From Candidatus Poribacteria bacterium (GTDB taxonomy: Bacteria; Poribacteria; WGA-4E; WGA-3G): a stretch of DNA of 64,000 bases. The notes below the pieces were generated by a model that saw only the letters and a program-made list of their open reading frames with translations, was not told the DNA's origin and ran no database searches. Made by a program: the position numbers and the translations under genes. Numbering within the stretch: position 1 is the first letter of the stretch; every line of letters starts with the position of its first letter. Location: contig OZ251518.1 of the NCBI GenBank assembly GCA_965242965.1, forward strand, positions 800,001 through 864,000, written 5' to 3'. Shown here piece after piece: positions 33,725 through 54,555 of the stretch.

Positions 33725-33980
33725 TTTCGGTCCGTAGGACCTTAATGTCTATAGCACGTCCGCATTAACCGTAGCGCGAGGGCCTGTCCCTCGCGATCTA
33801 GTATTCTTCTTTCACCGTAGACCGTTTCGGGATCAGGCGATCCCGAACTACTTTATTAACCCGTAGCGCGAGGGCCTGTCCCTCGCGATCTAGCATTCTT
33901 CTTTCACCGTAGCGCGAGGGCCTGTCCCTCGCGATTGCCGCTTATTAACCCGTAGTGCGAGGGCCTGTCCCTCGCAATCG
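33725..33980. repeat. REP cluster (gtagcgcgagggcctgtccctcgcg x4)
   Basis: Repeated palindromes between co-oriented genes. Confidence 0.85.
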
Positions 33981-34003
33981 CCCGATCCGACAAGGAGACT
34001 CAA

Positions 34004-35470
34004 ATGAACCCAAAAACCCAATTCCCGCGGAAACGACTCCCTTACCTCACCGTCGCCGCCCTGTTCCTCTTCTCCATAACAACCGTTGCATCTGCCTTAA
34101 CCACGGAACAGATTGCCAAAAAAGCGTTAGCCGCCACTGTCTATTTAGAGATGAAAAATAGCACCGGCACGACACTCGGTTTTGGCAGCGGCTTCTTCGT
34201 CAAACCGGACCAGATTGCCACCAATTTCCACGTCATTGAAGGCGCAGCGCGAGGCACAGCGAAGTTAGTCGGCAAATACGCGCGGTATCAAATCGAAGGC
34301 ATCATCGCCACCGATAAGGACAACGATCTCGCCGTTCTGAAAGTCACCGCGTATGGTATCCCCCCGTTGTCCCTCGGCGATAGCGATACCGTGAATATCG
34401 GCGCGAAGGTTTACGTCGCCGGCAACCCGAAAGGACTAGAAGGGACATTCTCTGATGGCCTCATCAGCCGCCGCGAGCGTTATCCCAAAAAGCGGCTCCA
34501 GATGACAGCACCGATTTCGCCGGGGAGTAGCGGCGGGCCCGTGCTGAATAGCAAGGGACAGGTTATCGGGATTTCAGTTTCTGTCCATCGTGCCCTTGAC
34601 GCGCAGAACCTGAATTTTGCGATTCCATCAAATTACCTGAAGGTGCTGTTGGCAAAGGCGCGTCCTGCCAAACCTTTGTCGAAGAATAGCCCATCCATAT
34701 CTGCGGAGACCTACTTCCTTCGCGGGAATGCGAAAGATGAGTTGGGGTTGTATCATGCCGCCATTTCTGATTACGATGAGGCTATCCGCCTCAAACCTAA
34801 CTATGCCGGTGCTTACAACAACCGGGGACATGCGAAAGCGGCATTAGGCGAATACTTTCCCGCTATTGCTGATTATGATATGACTATCCGCCTCAAGCCA
34901 GATGATGTCAATGCCTACTTCAATAGGGGAATTGCGAAGTATGCTCTGGAGCAATATGAGGCCGCGATTGCGGATTATACGGCGGGTATCCGTCTCAAAC
35001 CTGATTATGCCTTTGCCTACTACATGCGGGGACATGTGAAGTATGATCTGAAGCGATATGAGGCCGCTATTGCGGATTATGACGTGGCTATCCGCCTCAG
35101 ACCTGATTATGCCGGTGCCTACTACAATCGGGGACATGCGAAGTATAGTCTGAAGCAATACTTCCGTGCCATCTCTGATTATGATATGGCAATTCGCCTC
35201 AACCCCGACTATGCCAATGCCTACGTCTATCGGGGACATGCGAAGCGTGATCTGAAGCAATATGAGGCCGCTATTGCGGATTATGATATAGCGATTCTTC
35301 TCAAACCCGACTATGCCGATGCCTACTACATGCGGGGATTTGCGAAGGCCCTGCTCAAGCGGACTTGGGAGGCGAAGCAGGATTTTCGGACTGCATGGGG
35401 ACTCGCGGAAAAGGCGGGCGATGAGAGCCTTAAAGCCCACATTGAGGAAACTCTTCGGCTTCTTGAATAG
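34004..35470 (+). CDS. Secreted trypsin-like serine protease (Trypsin_2) fused to TPR repeats
   Basis: Signal peptide; GSGFF, TNFHV (His), DLAVL (Asp) and ISPGSSGGP (Ser); about 7 TPRs. Confidence 0.92.
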   Translation: MNPKTQFPRKRLPYLTVAALFLFSITTVASALTTEQIAKKALAATVYLEMKNSTGTTLGFGSGFFVKPDQIATNFHVIEGAARGTAKLVGKYARYQIEGIIATDKDNDLAVLKVTAYGIPPLSLGDSDTVNIGAKVYVAGNPKGLEGTFSDGLISRRERYPKKRLQMTAPISPGSSGGPVLNSKGQVIGISVSVHRALDAQNLNFAIPSNYLKVLLAKARPAKPLSKNSPSISAETYFLRGNAKDELGLYHAAISDYDEAIRLKPNYAGAYNNRGHAKAALGEYFPAIADYDMTIRLKPDDVNAYFNRGIAKYALEQYEAAIADYTAGIRLKPDYAFAYYMRGHVKYDLKRYEAAIADYDVAIRLRPDYAGAYYNRGHAKYSLKQYFRAISDYDMAIRLNPDYANAYVYRGHAKRDLKQYEAAIADYDIAILLKPDYADAYYMRGFAKALLKRTWEAKQDFRTAWGLAEKAGDESLKAHIEETLRLLE

Positions 35471-35510
35471 TCACATTTTCTCGCGCAAAAATGCCTGCAG
35501 CAAAATTAAT

Positions 35511-35540
35511 TTGACATGAAAGCGCGAAATGTGGTATCCT
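35511..35540 (+). promoter_or_regulatory. Sigma70-type promoter TTGACA-18-TATCCT with TG extension
   Basis: Lies upstream of the structured leader and the TIR gene. Confidence 0.6.
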
Positions 35541-35543
35541 ATT

Positions 35544-35730
35544 TGCAATGCAGTGGTTAATTCCTTTGAGCATCCGCAACCGATTCGCGGTTGCGGATGG
35601 ACATTGCATCCGGAAATTTGCGACCGCGAAGCCGGAAGAACCAGATACGGGTAGTTTTCACATTTTCCTCTCTAAAAATCCTTTTCTGTGCTAAAATGGT
35701 TTGCACAGACTGATATCAAGGAATTAACTG
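35544..35730 (+). ncRNA. Putative structured RNA or leader upstream of the Thoeris-like genes
   Basis: 11-bp perfect long-range IR (35556-35566/35718-35728); 12-bp perfect hairpin 35571-35599; hairpins at 35609-35636 and 35685-35709. Confidence 0.45.
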
Positions 35731-35760
35731 AAACCATCTTCAAACCTAGCAGGTGGAGTT

Positions 35761-36342
35761 ATGAGTACCGACAAGAAATTCCACGTTTGCTTCGACGGTG
35801 TTAATGATTTTCATTACTACCGGATGATGCAAGAATGGAAGCGAAACCACTACCTGAGATTTGATTTTCACCACTCACGTGGCTTCGGTGGTGAAAACCC
35901 CTGGGAAACGGCTAAGTCCGGCCGAGTAAAGTCAATTCGTCCGGATGAACCCTTCGTCGTTTTGATTGGGGAAAGCACGCGCTATCTCCGTTTTGTGGAT
36001 TGGGAGATAAGACAGGCATTGGAACAACACGTGCCCATAATCGGGGTGAACTTGAACGGCCTGAGATTCCAAGACCTCGATCGGTGTCCCGATATTCTTC
36101 ACGGCAAACTAGCTGTTCACATCAGCTTTAACGCCCTTATCTTGCAGCATGCTTTGGAGACTTGGCCAGGGCATCACGACAGATTGCGGGAACAAGGGAA
36201 ATCGGGGCCCTACTACTACAACCAAAGCCACTACGAGAAATTAGGCATAGGACGGACGCAGAACGAATCCCGTGGGCGCGGTGACAAACCGCGTAATCCT
36301 GCACGTGCGTGGTTTCAAACCGAGTCTACCAGGGGGAAATGA
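35761..36342 (+). CDS. thsB: Thoeris ThsB-like TIR domain protein (DUF1863/MTH538-like)
   Basis: HVCFDG.ND.HYYR.M.EWK, FVVLIGE.TRY.RFVDWEI..AL...VPIIGVNLNG.R..D..RCP; catalytic Glu in WEI. Confidence 0.8.
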   Translation: MSTDKKFHVCFDGVNDFHYYRMMQEWKRNHYLRFDFHHSRGFGGENPWETAKSGRVKSIRPDEPFVVLIGESTRYLRFVDWEIRQALEQHVPIIGVNLNGLRFQDLDRCPDILHGKLAVHISFNALILQHALETWPGHHDRLREQGKSGPYYYNQSHYEKLGIGRTQNESRGRGDKPRNPARAWFQTESTRGK

Positions 36343-37319
36343 GGACATTTGCGCAGGTCCTAAGTTCTATGAAACCACGTATGAAATTACCCCTTATGTT
36401 CACTAAGGACCTCCGCCGCTCCATGCTGGCTGGGGGCGTAAAAATTTTCCTCACGGTTTGTGGCGGACTTTGGTGCTTAGTTGAAGTTCCCGCTTTCTTC
36501 TTTCCCAAGCATTTGGAATGGGCACAAGGAAACTTATGGGCGTTTTGCGGATACGTTGTATTTGCCCTAGTTGTAGTTATCTTTAAGGTTCGGCAACAAG
36601 CGAACGCTATGCTTTCGGTTCGTGAGAACTTGGAAGGAAAAGACTGTTCAATAGAAATTCAAGTCGGTGATATTTTCAAAGTGAAGGAGAAAAGTGATTT
36701 TATCATTGGCACGAATACGGACTTTGACACCGATATGTCCGACGGCCCGATCTCAAAGGACAGTTTGCAAGGGCAGTTCACAACAAAGTACTACGCCGGA
36801 AGGGAACAACACCTATATCGGGATTTGGAAGCCTCCTTGGCGGCCGAAAAGCACCCTCTTGTCGAAAATACGCATCGGCAAACCAAACGTTACGAGTTTG
36901 GCACTGTGGCTGAGGTGTCTGCTGACGATCGAGAGGTTTACTTCGTTGCCATTGACGAGTTGGACAAACAGGGAGTTGTCACTAGTTCACTCGAAAATGT
37001 CAGACAGAGTCTCTCAGAACTTTGGGGGTACATCGGCGACTATGGTGAAGTCGGGGAACTTGTCATCCCTATCTTGGGCACAAGAGGGGCTAAGATTCAG
37101 GTTCCGCGAGAGGTTATGATTATCGAAATTATTAATTCCTTTATCAAGGCTACGTATTTAGGAAAGACAATCTGCGAACGCCTGAAAATTGTTGTTTATG
37201 AGGAAGACTATCGAAATCATAACATAGATTTGAACAAATTGCGGAGTTACCTCCACGTTCACGCGACACCGAAACGATGGCAAGCTGAGGAATACGAAGT
37301 GCCTGGGAAATCTGTCTAA
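36339..37319 (+). CDS. thsA: Thoeris type II ThsA-like effector: 2 TM plus Macro domain (DUF6430-like)
   Basis: Two N-terminal TM helices; IEI.VGDIF, IIGTNTDFDT, SLQGQF, YE.GTVA, YFVA and IPILGT motifs; ATGA overlap with thsB. Confidence 0.78.
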   Translation: MRTFAQVLSSMKPRMKLPLMFTKDLRRSMLAGGVKIFLTVCGGLWCLVEVPAFFFPKHLEWAQGNLWAFCGYVVFALVVVIFKVRQQANAMLSVRENLEGKDCSIEIQVGDIFKVKEKSDFIIGTNTDFDTDMSDGPISKDSLQGQFTTKYYAGREQHLYRDLEASLAAEKHPLVENTHRQTKRYEFGTVAEVSADDREVYFVAIDELDKQGVVTSSLENVRQSLSELWGYIGDYGEVGELVIPILGTRGAKIQVPREVMIIEIINSFIKATYLGKTICERLKIVVYEEDYRNHNIDLNKLRSYLHVHATPKRWQAEEYEVPGKSV

Positions 37320-37337
37320 ACCAGAAATCCACAGCAC

Positions 37338-40088
37338 CTACCTCTTCGGATTCCAAAACGCGCAAATCATCGCGGTAATCGGAATCGCCAACACCAATCC
37401 TAACGTCCCGGCCAACAACCGCACAATCTCCGCGGACACCACGCCAATGCTCAATAACTGCGCCGGCGGCGACTTGAAAAAGTCTAGGTTCGGCGCAGCG
37501 ATTGTGATGACCAGCAGTAACTCTACGCCGAGATACGCAAATACTAACGTGTTTACCATCGTGCCCAGGATATCCGTGCCGACGTTAAGGCCTGAGGCGA
37601 TGAGCCGCCACGTCGGCATGTTCGGATTCGCACGCCGAATCTCTTCCATGCTGGATGCCACCTCAATCGCGCCATCAACTGCCACGCCTAATACGCCCAT
37701 CAACATCCCTGCCAACAGAATCTGCACGAAGTCAAACGGCGGCGTGCGCGTCGCTTCGACGATGTCCGCCGAAATGGCGTTCTCTAACCCAGAAAAGTGG
37801 AGGTGCTGCTGCGCGTAGAGGACGATGAGCCCGGCGACAAGAATGCCGCCCATCGTGCCTAGCACTGCCGAAAACGTTTTTCGGCTCGGACCGATGACGA
37901 AAACAAGTGAGACGAACGCAATCACGCCAGAAGTCAGCGTCACGATAAACACGGCGTTCGCGCCTTGCGAAATGAGCGGCAGCATGAAGAAGTAGATAAC
38001 CGTCGCGGAGATGAGCATGGCGCACGCGGTGCGGATGCCCTCAATTCTGCCGACGATAATGATGAGCAGTAACATCCCGCCTACCATCCATACCAAAAAC
38101 CCATCGCGCCCGTATTCTTGGACGATATTGACAAGACCGACTCGCTCGGGGTCTCCCCCAACGCGGCACAGCACGATGTCCCCGGGCTCCGCAGGGATAC
38201 TCAGCAACGGCATGTTATGATTGACGATGTTTCGCAGGACGAGGCGTTGTCCTTGATACATGCCGCTCAGCATTTCGACTTCAAGGATATGATGCTCGGT
38301 TTTGGTGTCGTAAACGTGTAGGGAGCGAGGAACAGAAGGGTCTGGGGAGATCGAGGGTTCGCGAGGGACAGAGAGGTCTGGTGAGACCGAGGAGTCGCGA
38401 GGGACAGGCCCTCGCGCTACGGTATCAGGCGTGGTAGGGACAGGTCCGCGCGCTGCGGGATTGGGTGTGGTGCGGATGCTGTAGGTCTGCTCGTATTTTA
38501 CATCGGAGATGAGCCAGCGGCTGTCTTTCCACGGCTTAATCGAAACTATAACCTCCTCGGAAATAGGGATGTTGTGTTTTTCAAACGCCTCGCGCAAAGC
38601 AGGTGGAAAGACGCTGTTGTCTAAATCGGCAGTGACAGAATCAGGCGATTCCGTTCTATTATCAACGGTAAACAGGAAATCGCCACTGGATTCCAGCAGT
38701 CGGATGACCTTGCCTTTCGCATATTCCGACTGCGTGAGGATGCCTCCCTGTTCGTCGCGCTGTTCGCTGATTGTGGCGGCGTTGCGTTGGACGCGTTGAT
38801 AGACAAAAGTTGTGCCGACTAGCACCAGCACCATCGCGATGGGCACGGCGATGCGGGATGCACTGCGCGGGTTCTCGGCACGGAACAGTTCCTCTAATTC
38901 CTCCTCTGAAGGCAGGTCTTCGTGAATTTCGGTTCTGTCCACTTTGGCGTATTGGGTGAGGAATCCGGCGATTGTCGCCGCGATCGGCACGGTCAGCACC
39001 AATCCAATCGTGCCGACAACGGCTTGGATAATGGCCACCGAAGTCGCTTCGTCATTGACAAGTCTGAGGAACGGATAGAGGGTGCCTGCTTCTGGGAATT
39101 CGATGCGCGGGAGGAGCATCGTCATCATGTGCGCGCCGAGGTAGGCGAAGATGAGCGTATCTGCCATCGTCCCCATAATATCGCGTCCGACGTTCAACCC
39201 CGCACGAATAGATTGCCGCACCGTGATATTCGGGTTAACCTGTTTGACTTCGTGCACGCTTGAGGAGATGGACATGCTCACGTCCATCATCGCGCCGACG
39301 GCACCGAGGATGATGCCTGCGGAGAGGATGCCGGTGAAATTCCAGTGATGCGATTCGGGTGTCCGCCACAGCGCGATGCCGAGTTCAAGAAAGCCAAACT
39401 CTTGCGCAAGCCCAGTCAGCACCAATGCGTGTTGGCTGATAACGGATAGCACGCCTACTGCCGCCAAACCGCCGAGTGTGCCTAGCACCCCAGAAACGAC
39501 TTTGAAACTGAACCCGGTAATCAAGACGAATGTCGTCAACGTCAACAGCGCGGCGATGCCGAGCGCGATGGCGATGGGGTTGTAACCGGCGATAGTCATC
39601 GGGACGAGCAGGTAAAGCACGGTGAGCGCGGTGACGAAAAGCGTCAAAATTGCGCGCACGCCTTTCATCCCGGCGACGAGAATCATCAGCACGCCGAGCG
39701 CGCCCGCGAGATAAAGCAGGAAGGGGGTCCGGAAATACTCGCGCATTCGGACATTGTCAAGCGTCGGATTGCTCGGGTCGCGGAGGGGGATATCGAGGAA
39801 CAGCACATCGCCGCGGCTGAGCACCCGGTCTCCGAAGGCGCGCCCTGTCCAGATGTTATTTACCGCGACTGTCTCGCCGCGAAACTGCCCGGAGAGGATG
39901 CGGAACGTTAACACCTGGTCTGCCTCATCGCTGGTATCTATCGCAACGACGCGGCCGAGGCAGACGAGCACCTGCAAGGCACCGTCGTGTGTAATTTCTG
40001 CGAACCGATAGAGTCTGACATGCAACACGGCAACGCTGAGCAGAATGAGCAGGATGCTGATGATTTTGATTGTTTTTGTTGATGCCAT
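37338..40088 (-). CDS. YibE/F family membrane protein with two tandem YibE/F domains
   Basis: Two repeats of G..MDV...ISS...E..NP..G.NVG.DI.GTM..TL.FAY.G; many TM helices; REP-derived linker insert. Confidence 0.85.
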   Translation of the reverse strand: MASTKTIKIISILLILLSVAVLHVRLYRFAEITHDGALQVLVCLGRVVAIDTSDEADQVLTFRILSGQFRGETVAVNNIWTGRAFGDRVLSRGDVLFLDIPLRDPSNPTLDNVRMREYFRTPFLLYLAGALGVLMILVAGMKGVRAILTLFVTALTVLYLLVPMTIAGYNPIAIALGIAALLTLTTFVLITGFSFKVVSGVLGTLGGLAAVGVLSVISQHALVLTGLAQEFGFLELGIALWRTPESHHWNFTGILSAGIILGAVGAMMDVSMSISSSVHEVKQVNPNITVRQSIRAGLNVGRDIMGTMADTLIFAYLGAHMMTMLLPRIEFPEAGTLYPFLRLVNDEATSVAIIQAVVGTIGLVLTVPIAATIAGFLTQYAKVDRTEIHEDLPSEEELEELFRAENPRSASRIAVPIAMVLVLVGTTFVYQRVQRNAATISEQRDEQGGILTQSEYAKGKVIRLLESSGDFLFTVDNRTESPDSVTADLDNSVFPPALREAFEKHNIPISEEVIVSIKPWKDSRWLISDVKYEQTYSIRTTPNPAARGPVPTTPDTVARGPVPRDSSVSPDLSVPREPSISPDPSVPRSLHVYDTKTEHHILEVEMLSGMYQGQRLVLRNIVNHNMPLLSIPAEPGDIVLCRVGGDPERVGLVNIVQEYGRDGFLVWMVGGMLLLIIIVGRIEGIRTACAMLISATVIYFFMLPLISQGANAVFIVTLTSGVIAFVSLVFVIGPSRKTFSAVLGTMGGILVAGLIVLYAQQHLHFSGLENAISADIVEATRTPPFDFVQILLAGMLMGVLGVAVDGAIEVASSMEEIRRANPNMPTWRLIASGLNVGTDILGTMVNTLVFAYLGVELLLVITIAAPNLDFFKSPPAQLLSIGVVSAEIVRLLAGTLGLVLAIPITAMICAFWNPKR

Positions 40089-40452
40089 GGCGTTTCTCCA
40101 GTCATGCCGTATCACTTACGGTTGTGTTTCAGAACGAGTCAGTTCACGTATCTTCTGTTTTTTCTTTGCAAATAATATGCCAACGAAAAACGGGTTCAGG
40201 AGCCTTATTTGCACGATTTCGGGCAAAACGCCAGATGCAAAAGCACAAATTCGGGCAAAAATCCCATTCTCCTCACCGTAGCGCGAGGGCCTGTCCCTCG
40301 CCATTTTGTTGCAAAAACCCTGTTGCGATCAGGCGATCGCAACCTACAGAAAGAGAAGCCTGTGCCTTGCGATCCCTCGACCGCCCCGCGGCCCGTAGCG
40401 CGAGGGCCTGTCCCTCGCGATCTCGCGACCGCTCCTCCCTCACCATTTCGCC

Positions 40453-47315: not shown

Positions 47316-48270
47316 GCGCGGGGGATAGGTTTCCCCCGCGCGATGGATTCAGCACGGCTTATTTTTTCGTAGGGCGAGGGCCTGTCCCTCGCCATGCAGC
47401 GATCGCGAGGGAAACCCGCTCGGAGCCTGAAACGATCGCGGGGGACAGGCCCCCGCGCTACGGTAGCCGGAAACGGCCCGTTTTATCGTAGGGCGAGGGC
47501 CTGTCCCTCGCCATGCACCGATCGCGGAGGAAATCCGCTTGGAGCCTGAAACGATCGCGGGGGAAACCCGCTCGGATGCGCGTGTGGCATCCGAGGGCCC
47601 CCGCGCTACGGTATCCTGAGCGTCCCGTTTTATCGTAGGGCGAGGGACAGGCCCTCGCCATGCAACGATCGCGAGGGAAACCCGCTGCGGAGCCTGAAAC
47701 GATCGCGGGGGACAGGCCCCCGCGCTACGGTATCCGGAACGGCCCGTTCTACCGTAGGGCGAGGGCCTGTCCCTCGCCATGCTGCGGTCTACCAGACGAT
47801 AGCGGGGGACAGGCCCCCGCACTACAGGCGAAAAAAAAGCGCGAAGGACAGGCCTCCGCCCTACGCGGAAAATAACGTCTCTCGTTCTCTTAAGGTCTGT
47901 AAGACCTTAATGTCTATAGCAGCCCAAACGCAAAAGGCCTTAAGGTCCTTTAGGTCCTTAATAGAGTTTGCCAGGGCCGCGCGTGTTTTTATTAAGGACC
48001 TAAAGGACCTTGAAAAGGGAACGACACGTTTTTCTATAGACATTAAGGACCTAAAGGACCTAAAGACATCACTTGACAATGGACGATCGCGGGGGATAGG
48101 CCCACGCGCTACGGTAAGACGGGCCTACTCCTGTAGGTCAAGAGCACCTGCTCTTGACCCGATTGCGATCAGGCGATCGCAAACTACAGAGGAGGAACGC
48201 GAGGGACAGGCCCTCGCCCTACGGACCAGGAAGAAAAAATGCGCGGGGGCCTGTCCCCCGCGCTACGGTG
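47316..48270. repeat. Large mosaic of REP palindromes plus an AAGGACCTAAAGGACCT-type repeat family
   Basis: More than 10 gcgagggcctgtccctcgc/cgcgggggacaggcccccgcg units; 47890-48065 is bounded by the inverted ttaatgtctatag/ctatagacattaa. Confidence 0.85.
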
Positions 48271-53039: not shown

Positions 53040-53157
53040 ATTAAAATGCGATTAAAATGTGATTTTAGCAGATTTTTGCGTTTTTTTCAAGACTTTTTTG
53101 AAAAAAACGCGTTGCGCGCGGAAAAAATCGCGTTGCGCGCGGGAAAAATTTTGTTTT

Positions 53158-53515
53158 CACCGTAGCGCGCGGGCCTGTCCCGCGCGTTTTTCGGATTCCC
53201 GTAGCGTTTTCCCGTTACCGTAGCGCGAGGGCCTGTCCCTCGCGTGCAGCAAACCACGCTCCGATCACCGTAGCGCGAGGGCCTGTCCCTCGCGATCTCT
53301 CGGTGGAACACAAAACGCCCCGTTTTACCGTAGCGCGAGGGCCTGTCCCTCGCGAATGTTCCGCGCGTCCCGGGCATGGCGGGGGACAGGCCCCCGCCCT
53401 ACGGTTAAAAGGAGCCTCCTCCTTCTGTAGTTCAAGAGCACCTGCTCTTGACCTGATGGCGATCAGGCGATCGCAAACTACAGAGGGGGAACGCGAGGGA
53501 CAGACCCTCGCGAAC
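53158..53515. repeat. REP cluster
   Basis: Several gtagcgcgagggcctgtccctcgcg units; partly duplicated at 54180-54555. Confidence 0.85.
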
Positions 53516-53633
53516 GTTCGCAAACGACAGAAATACGAAAATTCAATTGGCCTATCAAAACGCGATTTCGGTTTGCATTTTGTTTCAAAAAGGTGTATAC
53601 TATACCTAAAACTTTCATGAGGAGGCACAAGAT

Positions 53634-54152
53634 ATGAAATACTGCACCCTTTTTGTGGTTGGGGTTTTGCTCTTAAGTTTCACTGCGTTCGGCGAGCTAA
53701 GCGTCAAAGACCTCGAGAAATTCCACGGGATGTTCAAAGAATCGGAGGCGCGGATGCAGGAATTCATGAAGGAGTCCGAAGAACGGACGAAGGAATACGT
53801 ATCGCAAGAAATCGCGCTGGTTAATCTCCGCATTGACGAGACGAACAAGCGGATAGAGAACGAATCTAAAGCGGCAAACATCCGACACGATTCGGTAAAC
53901 AACCGGTTTAGCGATGTGAACCGTTTCTTGAGTTTCATCTTTGGTTTGCTGGCGGCGTTGATTGTTGCTGTCATCGGCATGCCGTTATGGGAGCGGAAAA
54001 AGGCGCGTGAACAAGACGAGCAATTGAAAGCGCAACAACGGCAACTTGAGGCGCAACAACAGCAAATTGAGGCACAGCAGCGGCAACTTGAGGCGCAACA
54101 AGTTGAACTCAACGCGATGCGAGAGGCATTGGCAGCTCTGGAGCAGCGTTGA
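53634..54152 (+). CDS. Signal peptide, coiled-coil, TM and heptad-repeat tail hypothetical protein
   Basis: GAGGAGG RBS; AQQRQLE heptads encoded by 21-nt repeats; paralog at 58260..58622. Confidence 0.75.
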   Translation: MKYCTLFVVGVLLLSFTAFGELSVKDLEKFHGMFKESEARMQEFMKESEERTKEYVSQEIALVNLRIDETNKRIENESKAANIRHDSVNNRFSDVNRFLSFIFGLLAALIVAVIGMPLWERKKAREQDEQLKAQQRQLEAQQQQIEAQQRQLEAQQVELNAMREALAALEQR

Positions 54153-54179
54153 GGCGTGCAGCAAACCATGCCGCGACAA

Positions 54180-54555
54180 CCGTAGCGCGAGGGCCTGTCC
54201 CTCGCGAACGCTCGATCTCCGTAACGTTTTCGCGATTCCCGTAGCGCGAGGGCCTGTCCCTCGCGAGTGTTCCGCACGTCCCTGGCATGGCGGGGGACAG
54301 GCCCCCGCCCTACGATTAAGAGGAGCCTGCTCCGTCTGTAGTTCAAGAGCGCCTGCTCTTGACCCGATGGCGATCAGGCGATCGCAAACTACAGAGGGGC
54401 GCGCGGTTTGTCCCGCGCGTGCGGCAAACCACGCCCCTTCACCGTAGCGCGAGGGCCTGTCCCTCGCGATCGCTCGATTACCGTAGACGGGAAGAAATCG
54501 AGACCAGGAGGTCTCTCCTACCCTATTGCATCGAGACCAGGAGGTCTCTCCTACC
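54180..54555. repeat. REP cluster
   Basis: Same unit composition as 53158-53515, plus tandem atcgagaccaggaggtctctcctac. Confidence 0.85.

Follow-up and report, generated by a model that had tools for sequence, protein, structure and literature searches.

Does the stretch of about 215 nt that lies between a strong promoter and a Thoeris gene pair in this genome specify an RNA with a part in defence? The DNA analysed here (the window), a stretch of 64,000 nt, most likely comes from a sponge symbiont of the Poribacteria. An earlier note, made from the sequence alone, had described the leader as a structured RNA closed by an 11-bp stem and had proposed an RNA-regulated or RNA-containing Thoeris variant, a conformational switch or an orphan retron-like RNA acting in trans. 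We find that the leader is probably no separate RNA gene, no retron RNA and no general part of Thoeris, and that it is probably a lineage-specific, cassette-borne 5' UTR which acts in cis if at all. Native regulation of Thoeris expression has been little studied, and among the listed papers on Thoeris UTRs and on its non-coding RNAs, the latter mostly reviews by title, none was seen to describe a leader RNA native to Thoeris. The leader is important only if it regulates Thoeris; if it did so as a dedicated RNA domain, this would be the first RNA-regulated Thoeris system.

The genes of the locus and its flanks, in window coordinates, are as follows.

34004..35470, plus strand: trypsin-like protease with TPR repeats, left anchor of the defence slot (Pfam Trypsin_2, 1.7e-30; several TPR families)
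35511..35540, plus strand: slot promoter P1, with -35 TTGACA (35511-16), an 18-nt spacer and the extended -10 TGgTATCCT (10/12 consensus)
35545..35760, plus strand: untranslated leader of about 215 nt, cassette-borne and presumed to be the thsB-thsA 5' UTR (homology break; single copy)
35761..36342, plus strand: thsB, TIR-like signal synthase, 193 aa (PF08937, 2.3e-10; PADLOC ThsB1, 3e-40; PDB 8v6t, 4e-09)
36248..36310, plus strand: REP-like dispersed element, in frame within the 3' tail of thsB (80-91% matches in G000, G001 and G002)
36339..37319, plus strand: thsA, effector, 326 aa, Macro domain preceded by two hydrophobic N-terminal helices (PF20016, 4.5e-43)
37338..40115, minus strand: YibE/F-like membrane protein, convergent, right anchor of the slot (PF07907, 3.6e-119)

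The gene pair is an ordinary type II Thoeris system consisting of a TIR protein, ThsB, and a two-helix TM-Macro ThsA. Pfam, PADLOC and hydropathy agree on this, and the earlier note had already read a Thoeris-like TIR and TM-Macro pair. The match of ThsB to PF08937 is over the cut-off and the PADLOC ThsB1 match spans the full model. There is a glutamate in the motif LIGES (E71) that is invariant in the five aligned ThsB proteins and that may be the TIR catalytic glutamate. ThsB is 76% identical to its orthologue in G001, a genome of the same genus, and 45-53% identical to those of other relatives; beyond the genus, no ThsB in the databases exceeds 53% identity. A ThsB scan of genome contigs gave one relative among 66 pattern matches. 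ThsA covers positions 1-183 of 183 in the PF20016 profile, matches PADLOC ThsA (3.2e-60) and the PDB ThsA Macro chains 9uuz and 8r66 (~1e-13), and is of the Macro type, not SIR2-SLOG. Its hydropathy profile has maxima around residues 29-55 and 62-86, giving two hydrophobic segments (Kyte-Doolittle 19-residue windows of at least 1.6, starting at residues 29-37 and 62-68). The thsB stop and the thsA start overlap by 4 nt (ATGA, 36339-36342), and the gene order thsB-thsA is also found in G001 and four further relatives. With this locus, the known type II Thoeris pairs gain a diverged member from a sponge symbiont that is uncultivated. The locus resembles type II Thoeris in its TIR-like ThsB, its Macro ThsA with N-terminal helices, the 4-nt overlap and the variable defence slot, and it differs in having a lineage-specific leader of ~215 nt where relatives have short UTRs.

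Judging from its flanks, the Thoeris operon is an exchangeable cassette of ~1.8 kb in a slot between the protease-TPR and YibE/F genes. G001 (with two copies) and G002 likewise have the protease-TPR gene ahead of the slot promoter. As in swappable-cassette hot spots, the same flanks hold different contents: G000, the genome under study, carries Thoeris, G001 carries Thoeris and a remnant of another gene, and G002 carries a PD-Lambda-4_A-like gene. In G002 the end of the protease-TPR gene and the promoter are followed after ~35 nt by the PD-Lambda-4_A-like gene (2e-19). In G001 the Thoeris cassette is followed by a second protease-TPR gene, the promoter and a remnant of the PD-Lambda-4_A-like gene; the whole unit (protease-TPR, promoter, cassette and right junction) is in tandem duplicate. 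The right junction lies at the 3' end of the YibE/F gene and is itself duplicated in G001. Such a tandem duplication sets the slot apart from the known hot spots, as does a promoter that belongs to the conserved flank. The slot is a small and clear example in which the chromosomal promoter stays and the defence cassettes change. Homology to G002 and to the second G001 promoter copy stops after TATCCTATT(T/C), i.e. at 35543-35544, and a metagenome contig in run X11 also diverges at 35542. Homology thus ends at 35544, and the leader therefore arrived with the Thoeris cassette. There is no regulator gene within the cassette, by ORFs or by Pfam.

The strong promoter that the earlier note placed directly upstream is borne out. 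The -10 of P1 is TATCCT (35535-40), preceded by TG, ten of 12 positions match the sigma-70 consensus, and P1 fits a promoter consensus that recurs at ~12 other sites ahead of unrelated genes in the genome. The same promoter is present in G002, where another gene is under its control, and in the second copy in G001. Transcription would start near 35547, which would make the leader the thsBA 5' UTR, ~4 times longer than the UTRs that follow the same promoter type elsewhere in the genome.

The leader itself contains the following elements.

35556..35566, plus strand: 5' arm of the closing stem, 11 bp, GTTAATTCCTT, perfect reverse complement of 35718-35728
35571..35599, plus strand: hairpin 1, perfect 12-bp stem, CATCCGCAACCG (35571-82) with CGGTTGCGGATG (35588-99), 5-nt loop
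35609..35636, plus strand: hairpin 2, the variable centre of the leader (RNAfold prediction)
35685..35709, plus strand: hairpin 3, the palindrome TCTGTGC-N11-GCACAGA, unique in the genome and identical in G001
35689-35697, plus strand: -10-like TGcTAAAAT within hairpin 3 (sequence reading)
35718..35728, plus strand: 3' arm of the closing stem, 11 bp, AAGGAATTAAC, identical in G001
35734..35758, plus strand: small hairpin CCAUCU/AGGUGG, overlapping the Shine-Dalgarno sequence GGTGGAG (MFE structures of G000 and G001, sequence identical)

The perfect 11-bp inverted repeat, the perfect 12-bp hairpin and the two further hairpins that they were said to accompany are all present, hairpin 2 as an RNAfold prediction and hairpin 3 also by direct reading. 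RNAfold of 35544-35765 predicts that the 11-bp stem closes the domain, with an MFE of -66.7 kcal/mol (z = -2.87; 2 of 200 shuffles fold as well as the native sequence) and with pair probabilities of 0.97-1.0 for nine of the 11 closing pairs. The minus strand of the leader folds equally well (z = -3.05) and folding is therefore uninformative on strand. When the mononucleotides of the 290-nt intergenic region were shuffled, 2 of 300 shuffles contained a perfect long-range repeat of at least 11 bp; a 12-bp local hairpin arose in none of 1000 shuffles. By our arithmetic, chance would yield about one such 11-bp repeat (100-200-nt spacer) across the 64-kb window, so the closing stem alone is weak evidence. 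The 12-bp hairpin and the 11-bp stem together in one leader are beyond chance. The stem begins ~9 nt from the predicted 5' end, which is too distant for the classical role of a 5'-hairpin stabiliser.

Comparison with G001 shows an uneven pattern of conservation. Over positions 35661-35760, G000 and G001 share 99-100% identity, compared with ~83% for the locus on average and ~75% for the proteins. Such constraint on the 3' 100 nt would exceed what is expected of a passive spacer; a recent recombination tract could also explain it. This near-perfect conservation is the sole feature of the leader that merits experiment. Hairpin 1 in G001 is reduced to ~7 bp with a 20-nt loop and has two uncompensated changes at the base of its stem. 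There is a 38-nt gap (35625-35662) in G001 that deletes the 3' half of hairpin 2, the remainder being rearranged; in metagenome runs X6, X7 and X11 hairpin 2 is retained with C35611>T (U-G). The change C35563>T, seen in G001 and in the same three runs, still allows pairing on the plus strand, as G-U. In the extended closing stem both of the two substitutions keep plus-strand pairing (G-U to A-U; G-C to G-U), which mildly favours a selected RNA helix. Four of the seven substitutions at paired positions break pairs and none is compensatory. The fold of the G001 leader has a z of only -1.29.

With one copy in the genome of 5.7 Mb, the leader is not a REP family, in keeping with the earlier note. 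The only match that spans it is to itself; the other 38 genome matches are pieces of at most 45 nt, of which every significant one falls in the promoter. Leader-length matches are present in two of 112 family genomes and in two of 176 phylum genomes. By sequence or covariance model the leader is absent from 85 of 86 homologous thsB loci, the exception being the same-genus orthologue, which partly keeps it. There is no blastn or nhmmer match at 80 metagenome thsB loci and no match in phages or plasmids, the palindrome pattern of hairpin 3 has no match in metagenome and viral contigs, and the covariance model recovered only its two training sequences among 87 sources (next best E = 0.68). A long-range repeat of at least 11 bp was found in none of 71 homologous upstream regions. 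Three Poribacteria relatives with 45-49% ThsB identity (G004, G023 and G029) lack the leader: in G004 and G023 the promoter lies ~45-55 nt ahead of the start codon, and in G029 a gene ends ~130 nt upstream with no evident promoter. By a crude stop-to-stop estimate, the upstream gap has a median of 66.5 nt at the 66 of 80 metagenome loci with an upstream ORF, and ten of these 66 gaps reach or exceed the 290 nt seen here. Judged from these searches, the leader is confined to one genus.

Two findings had been named in advance as speaking against an RNA element of Thoeris, namely that homologous loci lack the structure or that the segment is a dispersed repeat. The second does not apply to a single-copy leader; the first is what we see at 85 of 86 loci, and an RNA-containing class of Thoeris is not supported. 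Covariation did not appear either: the leader is present in one orthologue only and has no compensatory substitution. Nor did a search of Rfam 15 over 35300-35900 at permissive E-values give anything other than chance matches (best scores of 8-16 bits against gathering thresholds of 44-55, all to eukaryotic or archaeal families).

Taken together, the data favour a 5' UTR, with the slot contributing the consensus sigma-70 promoter and the cassette its own leader of ~215 nt (35545-35760). With a start near 35547, the leader would form the 5' UTR of the thsBA mRNA, in which the 11-bp stem is predicted to close the fold. Since the TIR protein and the membrane effector are a potentially toxic pair, the leader could serve to damp or tune the output of their strong constitutive promoter. 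The conserved 3' half of the leader could also hold the cassette's former weak promoter and operator. Reports on type II Thoeris state that the signal made by ThsB activates ThsA and that histidine-ADPR is part of the TIR product (bioRxiv 10.1101/2024.01.03.573942; Sci Adv PMC11204291). Another report describes a type II ThsB1 as cytotoxic and 5'-UTR mutations in a cloning construct as reducing this toxicity, so ThsB dosage can matter (bioRxiv 10.64898/2026.01.22.701046). The Shine-Dalgarno sequence GGTGGAG (35752-58) lies outside the closed domain, and no simple tuning mechanism is therefore visible. There is no intrinsic terminator in the leader, nor another 3' end between the closing stem and thsB.

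The conserved 3' half could also act at the level of DNA, which is possible, though unlikely. It would then be a promoter and operator of the cassette, a repressor could bind the palindrome and the 11-bp repeat would be incidental. The near-identity of the 3' 100 nt, so far above the ~83% of the locus, would fit this reading. There is a sequence TGTGcTAAAAT in hairpin 3 that is similar to the genome consensus TGTGgTATACT, and with transcription from about 35704 the UTR would measure ~57 nt, comparable with the promoter distances in G004 and G023. The palindrome overlaps this -10, which lies within TCTGTGC-N11-GCACAGA, and operators often overlap -10 elements. However, no -35 is recognisable and a consensus scan makes no call here. 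The palindrome is found a single time in the genome (the sole looser match is within a coding region), and the cassette carries no regulator gene. Additionally, 100 nt of strict identity far exceeds the need of a single operator.

A function as cis-regulatory RNA, in which the leader would gate Thoeris as a sensor or switch with the closing stem and hairpin 3 as its core, is quite unlikely. Like riboswitches, attenuators and stabilisers, the leader is non-coding, lies between promoter and first gene and folds more stably than its shuffles (z = -2.87). The closing-stem pair probabilities of at least 0.97 at nine of 11 pairs, the pairing kept by both stem substitutions, the strong conservation of the 3' half and a length ~4 times that usual after this promoter type all point the same way. 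Unlike structured 5' leaders, however, it has no terminator/anti-terminator pair, its ribosome site is outside the domain, and it is conserved in one genus only, with no covariation and no Rfam family. The absence of compensatory changes, with four of seven paired-position substitutions disruptive, and the state of G001 (hairpin 2 deleted, hairpin 1 degraded, z only -1.29) also argue against such an RNA, as does its absence from 85 other Thoeris loci. A conformational switch had been proposed from the complementarity of TGCAATG (35544-50) to CATTGCA (35602-08). This complementarity is present, but the 5' arm begins at 35544, at or before the likely start (~35547), and the 3' arm is broken, reading CATTTAC in G001 and carrying 35608 A>C and a T inserted behind 35603 in metagenome variants. 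The alternative helix is thus not conserved and the switch is not supported. The stronger claim, that a dedicated cis-acting RNA domain made up of the closing stem and the invariant 3' half with hairpin 3 gates thsBA expression, is highly improbable; such gating could answer infection-related changes in transcription, RNA decay or ligand.

We consider it very unlikely that the stem-bounded 173 bp is a MITE-like relic with the 11-bp arms as its terminal inverted repeats. These repeats are perfect and flank ~170 bp of non-coding DNA (~150 bp within the arms), the interior is indel-variable with the ends retained in G001, and the genome is rich in small repeats, one of them even within thsB. In contrast with MITEs, the segment is single copy and found nowhere else: it is absent from the other 174 phylum genomes and from phages and plasmids. 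Its flanks (..CAGTG| and |TGAAA..) have no clear target-site duplication, and conservation is highest, not lowest, in the 3' part of the interior. That the leader is a retron-like msr-msd RNA or other trans-acting partner of Thoeris is extremely improbable. The terminal inverted repeats around three predicted hairpins do resemble the a1/a2 repeats at the ends of msr-msd, but the leader fronts a Thoeris operon, it matches no RNA family, is missing at 85 other Thoeris loci and has no terminator or 3' end between stem and thsB, and the lack of a reverse transcriptase noted for the window extends to the whole genome (PF00078, no match in a genome 94.66% complete; the control matched three of 14 genomes).

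Several smaller candidates were rejected. There is no conserved ORF in the leader: a 48-aa ORF at 35548 is cut off at codon 3 by 35555 G>A, a change found in G001, X6, X7 and X11, and a 49-aa ORF on the minus strand is frameshifted by the G001 indel. The invariant part also contains a possible 21-codon minus-strand ORF and a possible 5-codon uORF, though neither has a convincing ribosome site. A Rho-utilisation tract was discarded as the C/G ratio of the leader is at most 1.5 in 60-nt windows, which is unremarkable. An integron attC-like site was discarded because the arms run GTT...AAC outward, the reverse of the attC order, and because the element is upstream of the cassette genes and not downstream. 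The spacing of the palindrome does not match the LexA or CRP consensus sites. The 11-mer of the stem arm has three genomic copies (1.7 expected), the third lying inside an unrelated coding region, and on this count it was rejected as a recurrent protein-binding motif. A 10-mer copy in thsA (37132) is synonymously changed in G001 and was taken as chance.

Finally, the C-terminal tail of ThsB is built from the REP-like element, unlike in other type II Thoeris systems. The PADLOC ThsB model stops at residue 163 of 193, leaving a tail with this element, the copies of which have GGACGGACGCAG..GCGCGGTnnCAAACCGCG in common.

The two genes behind the promoter are a Thoeris TIR and TM-Macro pair, as the earlier note had read them. 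The TIR protein ThsB matches PF08937 (2.3e-10), PADLOC ThsB1 (3e-40) and PDB 8v6t (4e-09). ThsA has a full-length Macro domain (PF20016, 4.5e-43; PADLOC, 3.2e-60; PDB ThsA Macro chains, ~1e-13) and two hydrophobic segments at its N-terminus. The architecture is that of type II Thoeris, a known defence family of which this operon is a new and diverged representative. Every structural element that the earlier note described ahead of these genes is present, and the features are as follows.

35511-35540, + strand: slot promoter, TTGACA-18-TATCCT with an upstream TG (10/12 consensus matches)
35556-35566 and 35718-35728, + strand: closing stem, GTTAATTCCTT with AAGGAATTAAC, 11-bp perfect pairing by direct reading
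35571-35599, + strand: hairpin 1, perfect, 12 bp
35609-35636, + strand: hairpin 2
35685-35709, + strand: hairpin 3, TCTGTGC-N11-GCACAGA
starting at 35544: candidate alternative helix, the short complementary pair TGCAATG and CATTGCA
35761-36342, + strand: thsB
36339-37319, + strand: thsA, overlapping thsB by ATGA

The leader (35545-35760) is predicted to fold into a domain closed by the 11-bp stem (RNAfold MFE -66.7 kcal/mol, z = -2.87; 2 of 200 shuffles equally stable), and pair probabilities are at least 0.97 in 9 of the 11 pairs. The opposite strand is equally stable (z = -3.05), so folding alone does not name the strand. Shuffling the 290-nt intergenic region 300 times gave a long-range repeat of at least 11 bp twice and, by simple arithmetic, about one such 11-mer pair is expected by chance in the whole 64-kb window; the closing stem by itself is therefore weak evidence. 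A 12-bp hairpin was seen in none of 1000 shuffles, and the stem and hairpin together in a single leader are not due to chance.

The promoter reported directly before the leader is confirmed. The stretch 35506-35542 matches about 12 other genomic sites, all TTAATTTGACA-N17-TGTGGTATaCTAT and located 30-110 nt ahead of unrelated genes and one tRNA; judged by these matches, it is the organism's consensus strong promoter. At least four copies of one gene, near-identical to each other (start ...VN.QPVFLIADTHI...), also have the consensus ahead of them, in the form TTAATTTGACA-N17-TGTGGTATACTAT, and so do three copies of a second gene; such sites are at 453290, 853009 (window ~53009, minus strand), 3949190, 5563690 and other positions on contig C1 of the source genome. 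These multi-copy genes, each with its own identical strong promoter, are possibly mobile.

The promoter lies between a protease-TPR gene (34004-35470) and a YibE/F gene (37338-40115, minus strand). The same-genus genome G002 has the protease-TPR gene end and promoter in common with the window, and after TATCCTATTT there is a 35-nt UTR and a different gene, whose product matches PADLOC PD-Lambda-4_A (2e-19). In G001, of the same genus, thsA of the Thoeris cassette is followed by a duplicate of part of the YibE/F 3' end. Further downstream come a second complete protease-TPR gene, a promoter repeat (94% identical), a G002-type gene reduced to a truncated remnant, and YibE/F itself; the whole unit is tandemly duplicated, with Thoeris in one copy and the remnant in the other. 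Homology of the window with G002 and with the second G001 copy stops at 35544, and a contig from metagenome run X11 departs at 35542 into a third, different continuation. The slot is thus a hot spot, and the leader arrived with the Thoeris genes. By this comparison the promoter is the chromosome's and the 215 nt from 35545 to the thsB start codon are the cassette's. The region 34004-40115 is a defence hot spot (the window and loci L022, L024 and L029), organised as is ordinary among defence islands. Most of the public runs that contain this DNA carry the label sponge metagenome, and the closest relative among the genome contigs searched is assigned to Poribacteria, so the organism is very probably a Poribacteria sponge symbiont.

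Taken together, the leader is a genuine structured element confined to one lineage, and is probably a plain 5' UTR of thsBA. Transcription from the slot promoter would start at ~35547, as placed from the -10 element, and the folded RNA, if active at all, would act in cis. The leader might plausibly reduce or buffer expression of the two genes, whose products are a TIR enzyme and a membrane effector and whose promoter is strong and constitutive. According to a recent preprint (10.64898/2026.01.22.701046), one type II ThsB1 is cytotoxic and mutations in the 5' UTR made a construct less toxic, which supports such a role only indirectly. In literature searched mainly at listing level, no published report of a native Thoeris leader RNA was found.

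The leader is unevenly conserved within the genus. Contigs from runs X6, X7 and X11 carry a full-length leader of the source-genome type (~95-97% identity). In G001 the closing stem has one change (C35563>T, which leaves a G-U pair on the + strand). Hairpin 1 carries two changes at the stem base, both uncompensated, and its loop is different and 20 nt long; hairpin 2 is mostly lost to a 38-nt gap (35625-35662), the remainder being rearranged. From 35663 to the thsB start codon, hairpin 3 included, one base differs. Identity between the two genomes in 50-nt windows averages ~83% across the locus (54-96% in coding sequence), and 35661-35760 is 99-100% identical though the proteins are only ~75% identical. 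Within it are hairpin 3, the closing stem's 3' arm and a small hairpin that overlaps with the Shine-Dalgarno. For these two sequences the identity could come from a DNA site under selection, from selection acting on the 5' region of the mRNA, or equally from a tract of recent recombination. An internal promoter or operator in the conserved half is rather unlikely; there is a -10-like TGcTAAAAT on the loop side of hairpin 3.

A true regulatory RNA domain is less likely still. Twelve substitutions, taken from among the differences listed, were mapped on the source-genome MFE structure. Seven of the 12 are at paired positions (3 keep the pair by a one-sided change, 4 break it) and none of the 12 is compensatory; both listed substitutions in the extended closing stem preserve pairing. 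The G001 leader folds no better than shuffles (z = -1.29). Three features count against a classical 5' leader role: only ~9 nt separate the predicted 5' end from the stem, the closed domain does not include the ribosome site, and no terminator or transcript end is predicted between the closing stem and thsB. The suggested conformational switch is likewise not supported: the alternative helix starts at or before the likely transcription start and is broken in G001, X7 and X11.

The idea of a general RNA component of Thoeris found no evidence in locus, genus or homologue comparisons. A match of leader length is confined to two genomes, the source genome and G001, out of 112 in the family and 176 in the phylum; three more family genomes have only 20-30-nt pieces (E 0.001-0.006), and phage and plasmid collections gave no match, nor did the hairpin-3 pattern in metagenome and viral contigs. 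At the more distant Poribacteria Thoeris loci of G004, G023 and G029 (ThsB 45-49% identical) the leader is absent; the promoter is ~45-55 nt upstream of the thsB start codon in G004 and G023, and the upstream gene ends ~130 nt ahead of it in G029. Loci L028 (G004), L026 (G023) and L089, all distant and of Poribacteria type, share the conserved motif GTATACT(A/T)ATAGATATAAT(G/T)ACT ~30-55 nt ahead of thsB, and two -10-like hexamers stand in tandem within it. Among the best 80 of 334 metagenomic relatives (ThsB at most 52% identical), neither blastn (best E 0.43) nor nhmmer matched the leader. A covariance model of the closing stem and hairpin 3, built on the source-genome and G001 alignment, recovered only these two training sequences from 87 sources (next E = 0.68, away from thsB). 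No long-range repeat of at least 11 bp was found in 71 homologous upstream regions of testable length. Outside the one genus, the homologous loci compared thus all lack the structure, which is the outcome that the earlier note had named as refuting its idea.

As the earlier note held, the leader is no REP; it is single copy in the 5.7-Mb genome. A lone MITE relic is improbable. The retron-like or trans-acting RNA that the earlier note proposed can be dismissed almost entirely: no reverse transcriptase (PF00078) is found genome-wide (94.66% complete; control genomes match), no RNA family matches the leader and no transcript end is predicted ahead of thsB. The likeness is confined to inverted repeats enclosing hairpins.

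Palindromic REP elements of several families (CGTAGCGCGAGGGCCTGTCCCTCGCG among them) are very dense throughout the window, with dozens of copies in its 64 kb, for example at 2205-2303, 33745-33994, 47343-47836 and 53156-54486. A REP-like dispersed element (GGACGGACGCAG...GCGCGGTnnCAAACCGCG, 36248-36310) lies in frame within the thsB 3' tail and makes up most of the 30-residue C-terminal tail past the end of the ThsB model. There are other copies in the source genome, G001 and G002 (80-91% identity), and read depth in the metagenome runs spikes at this element.
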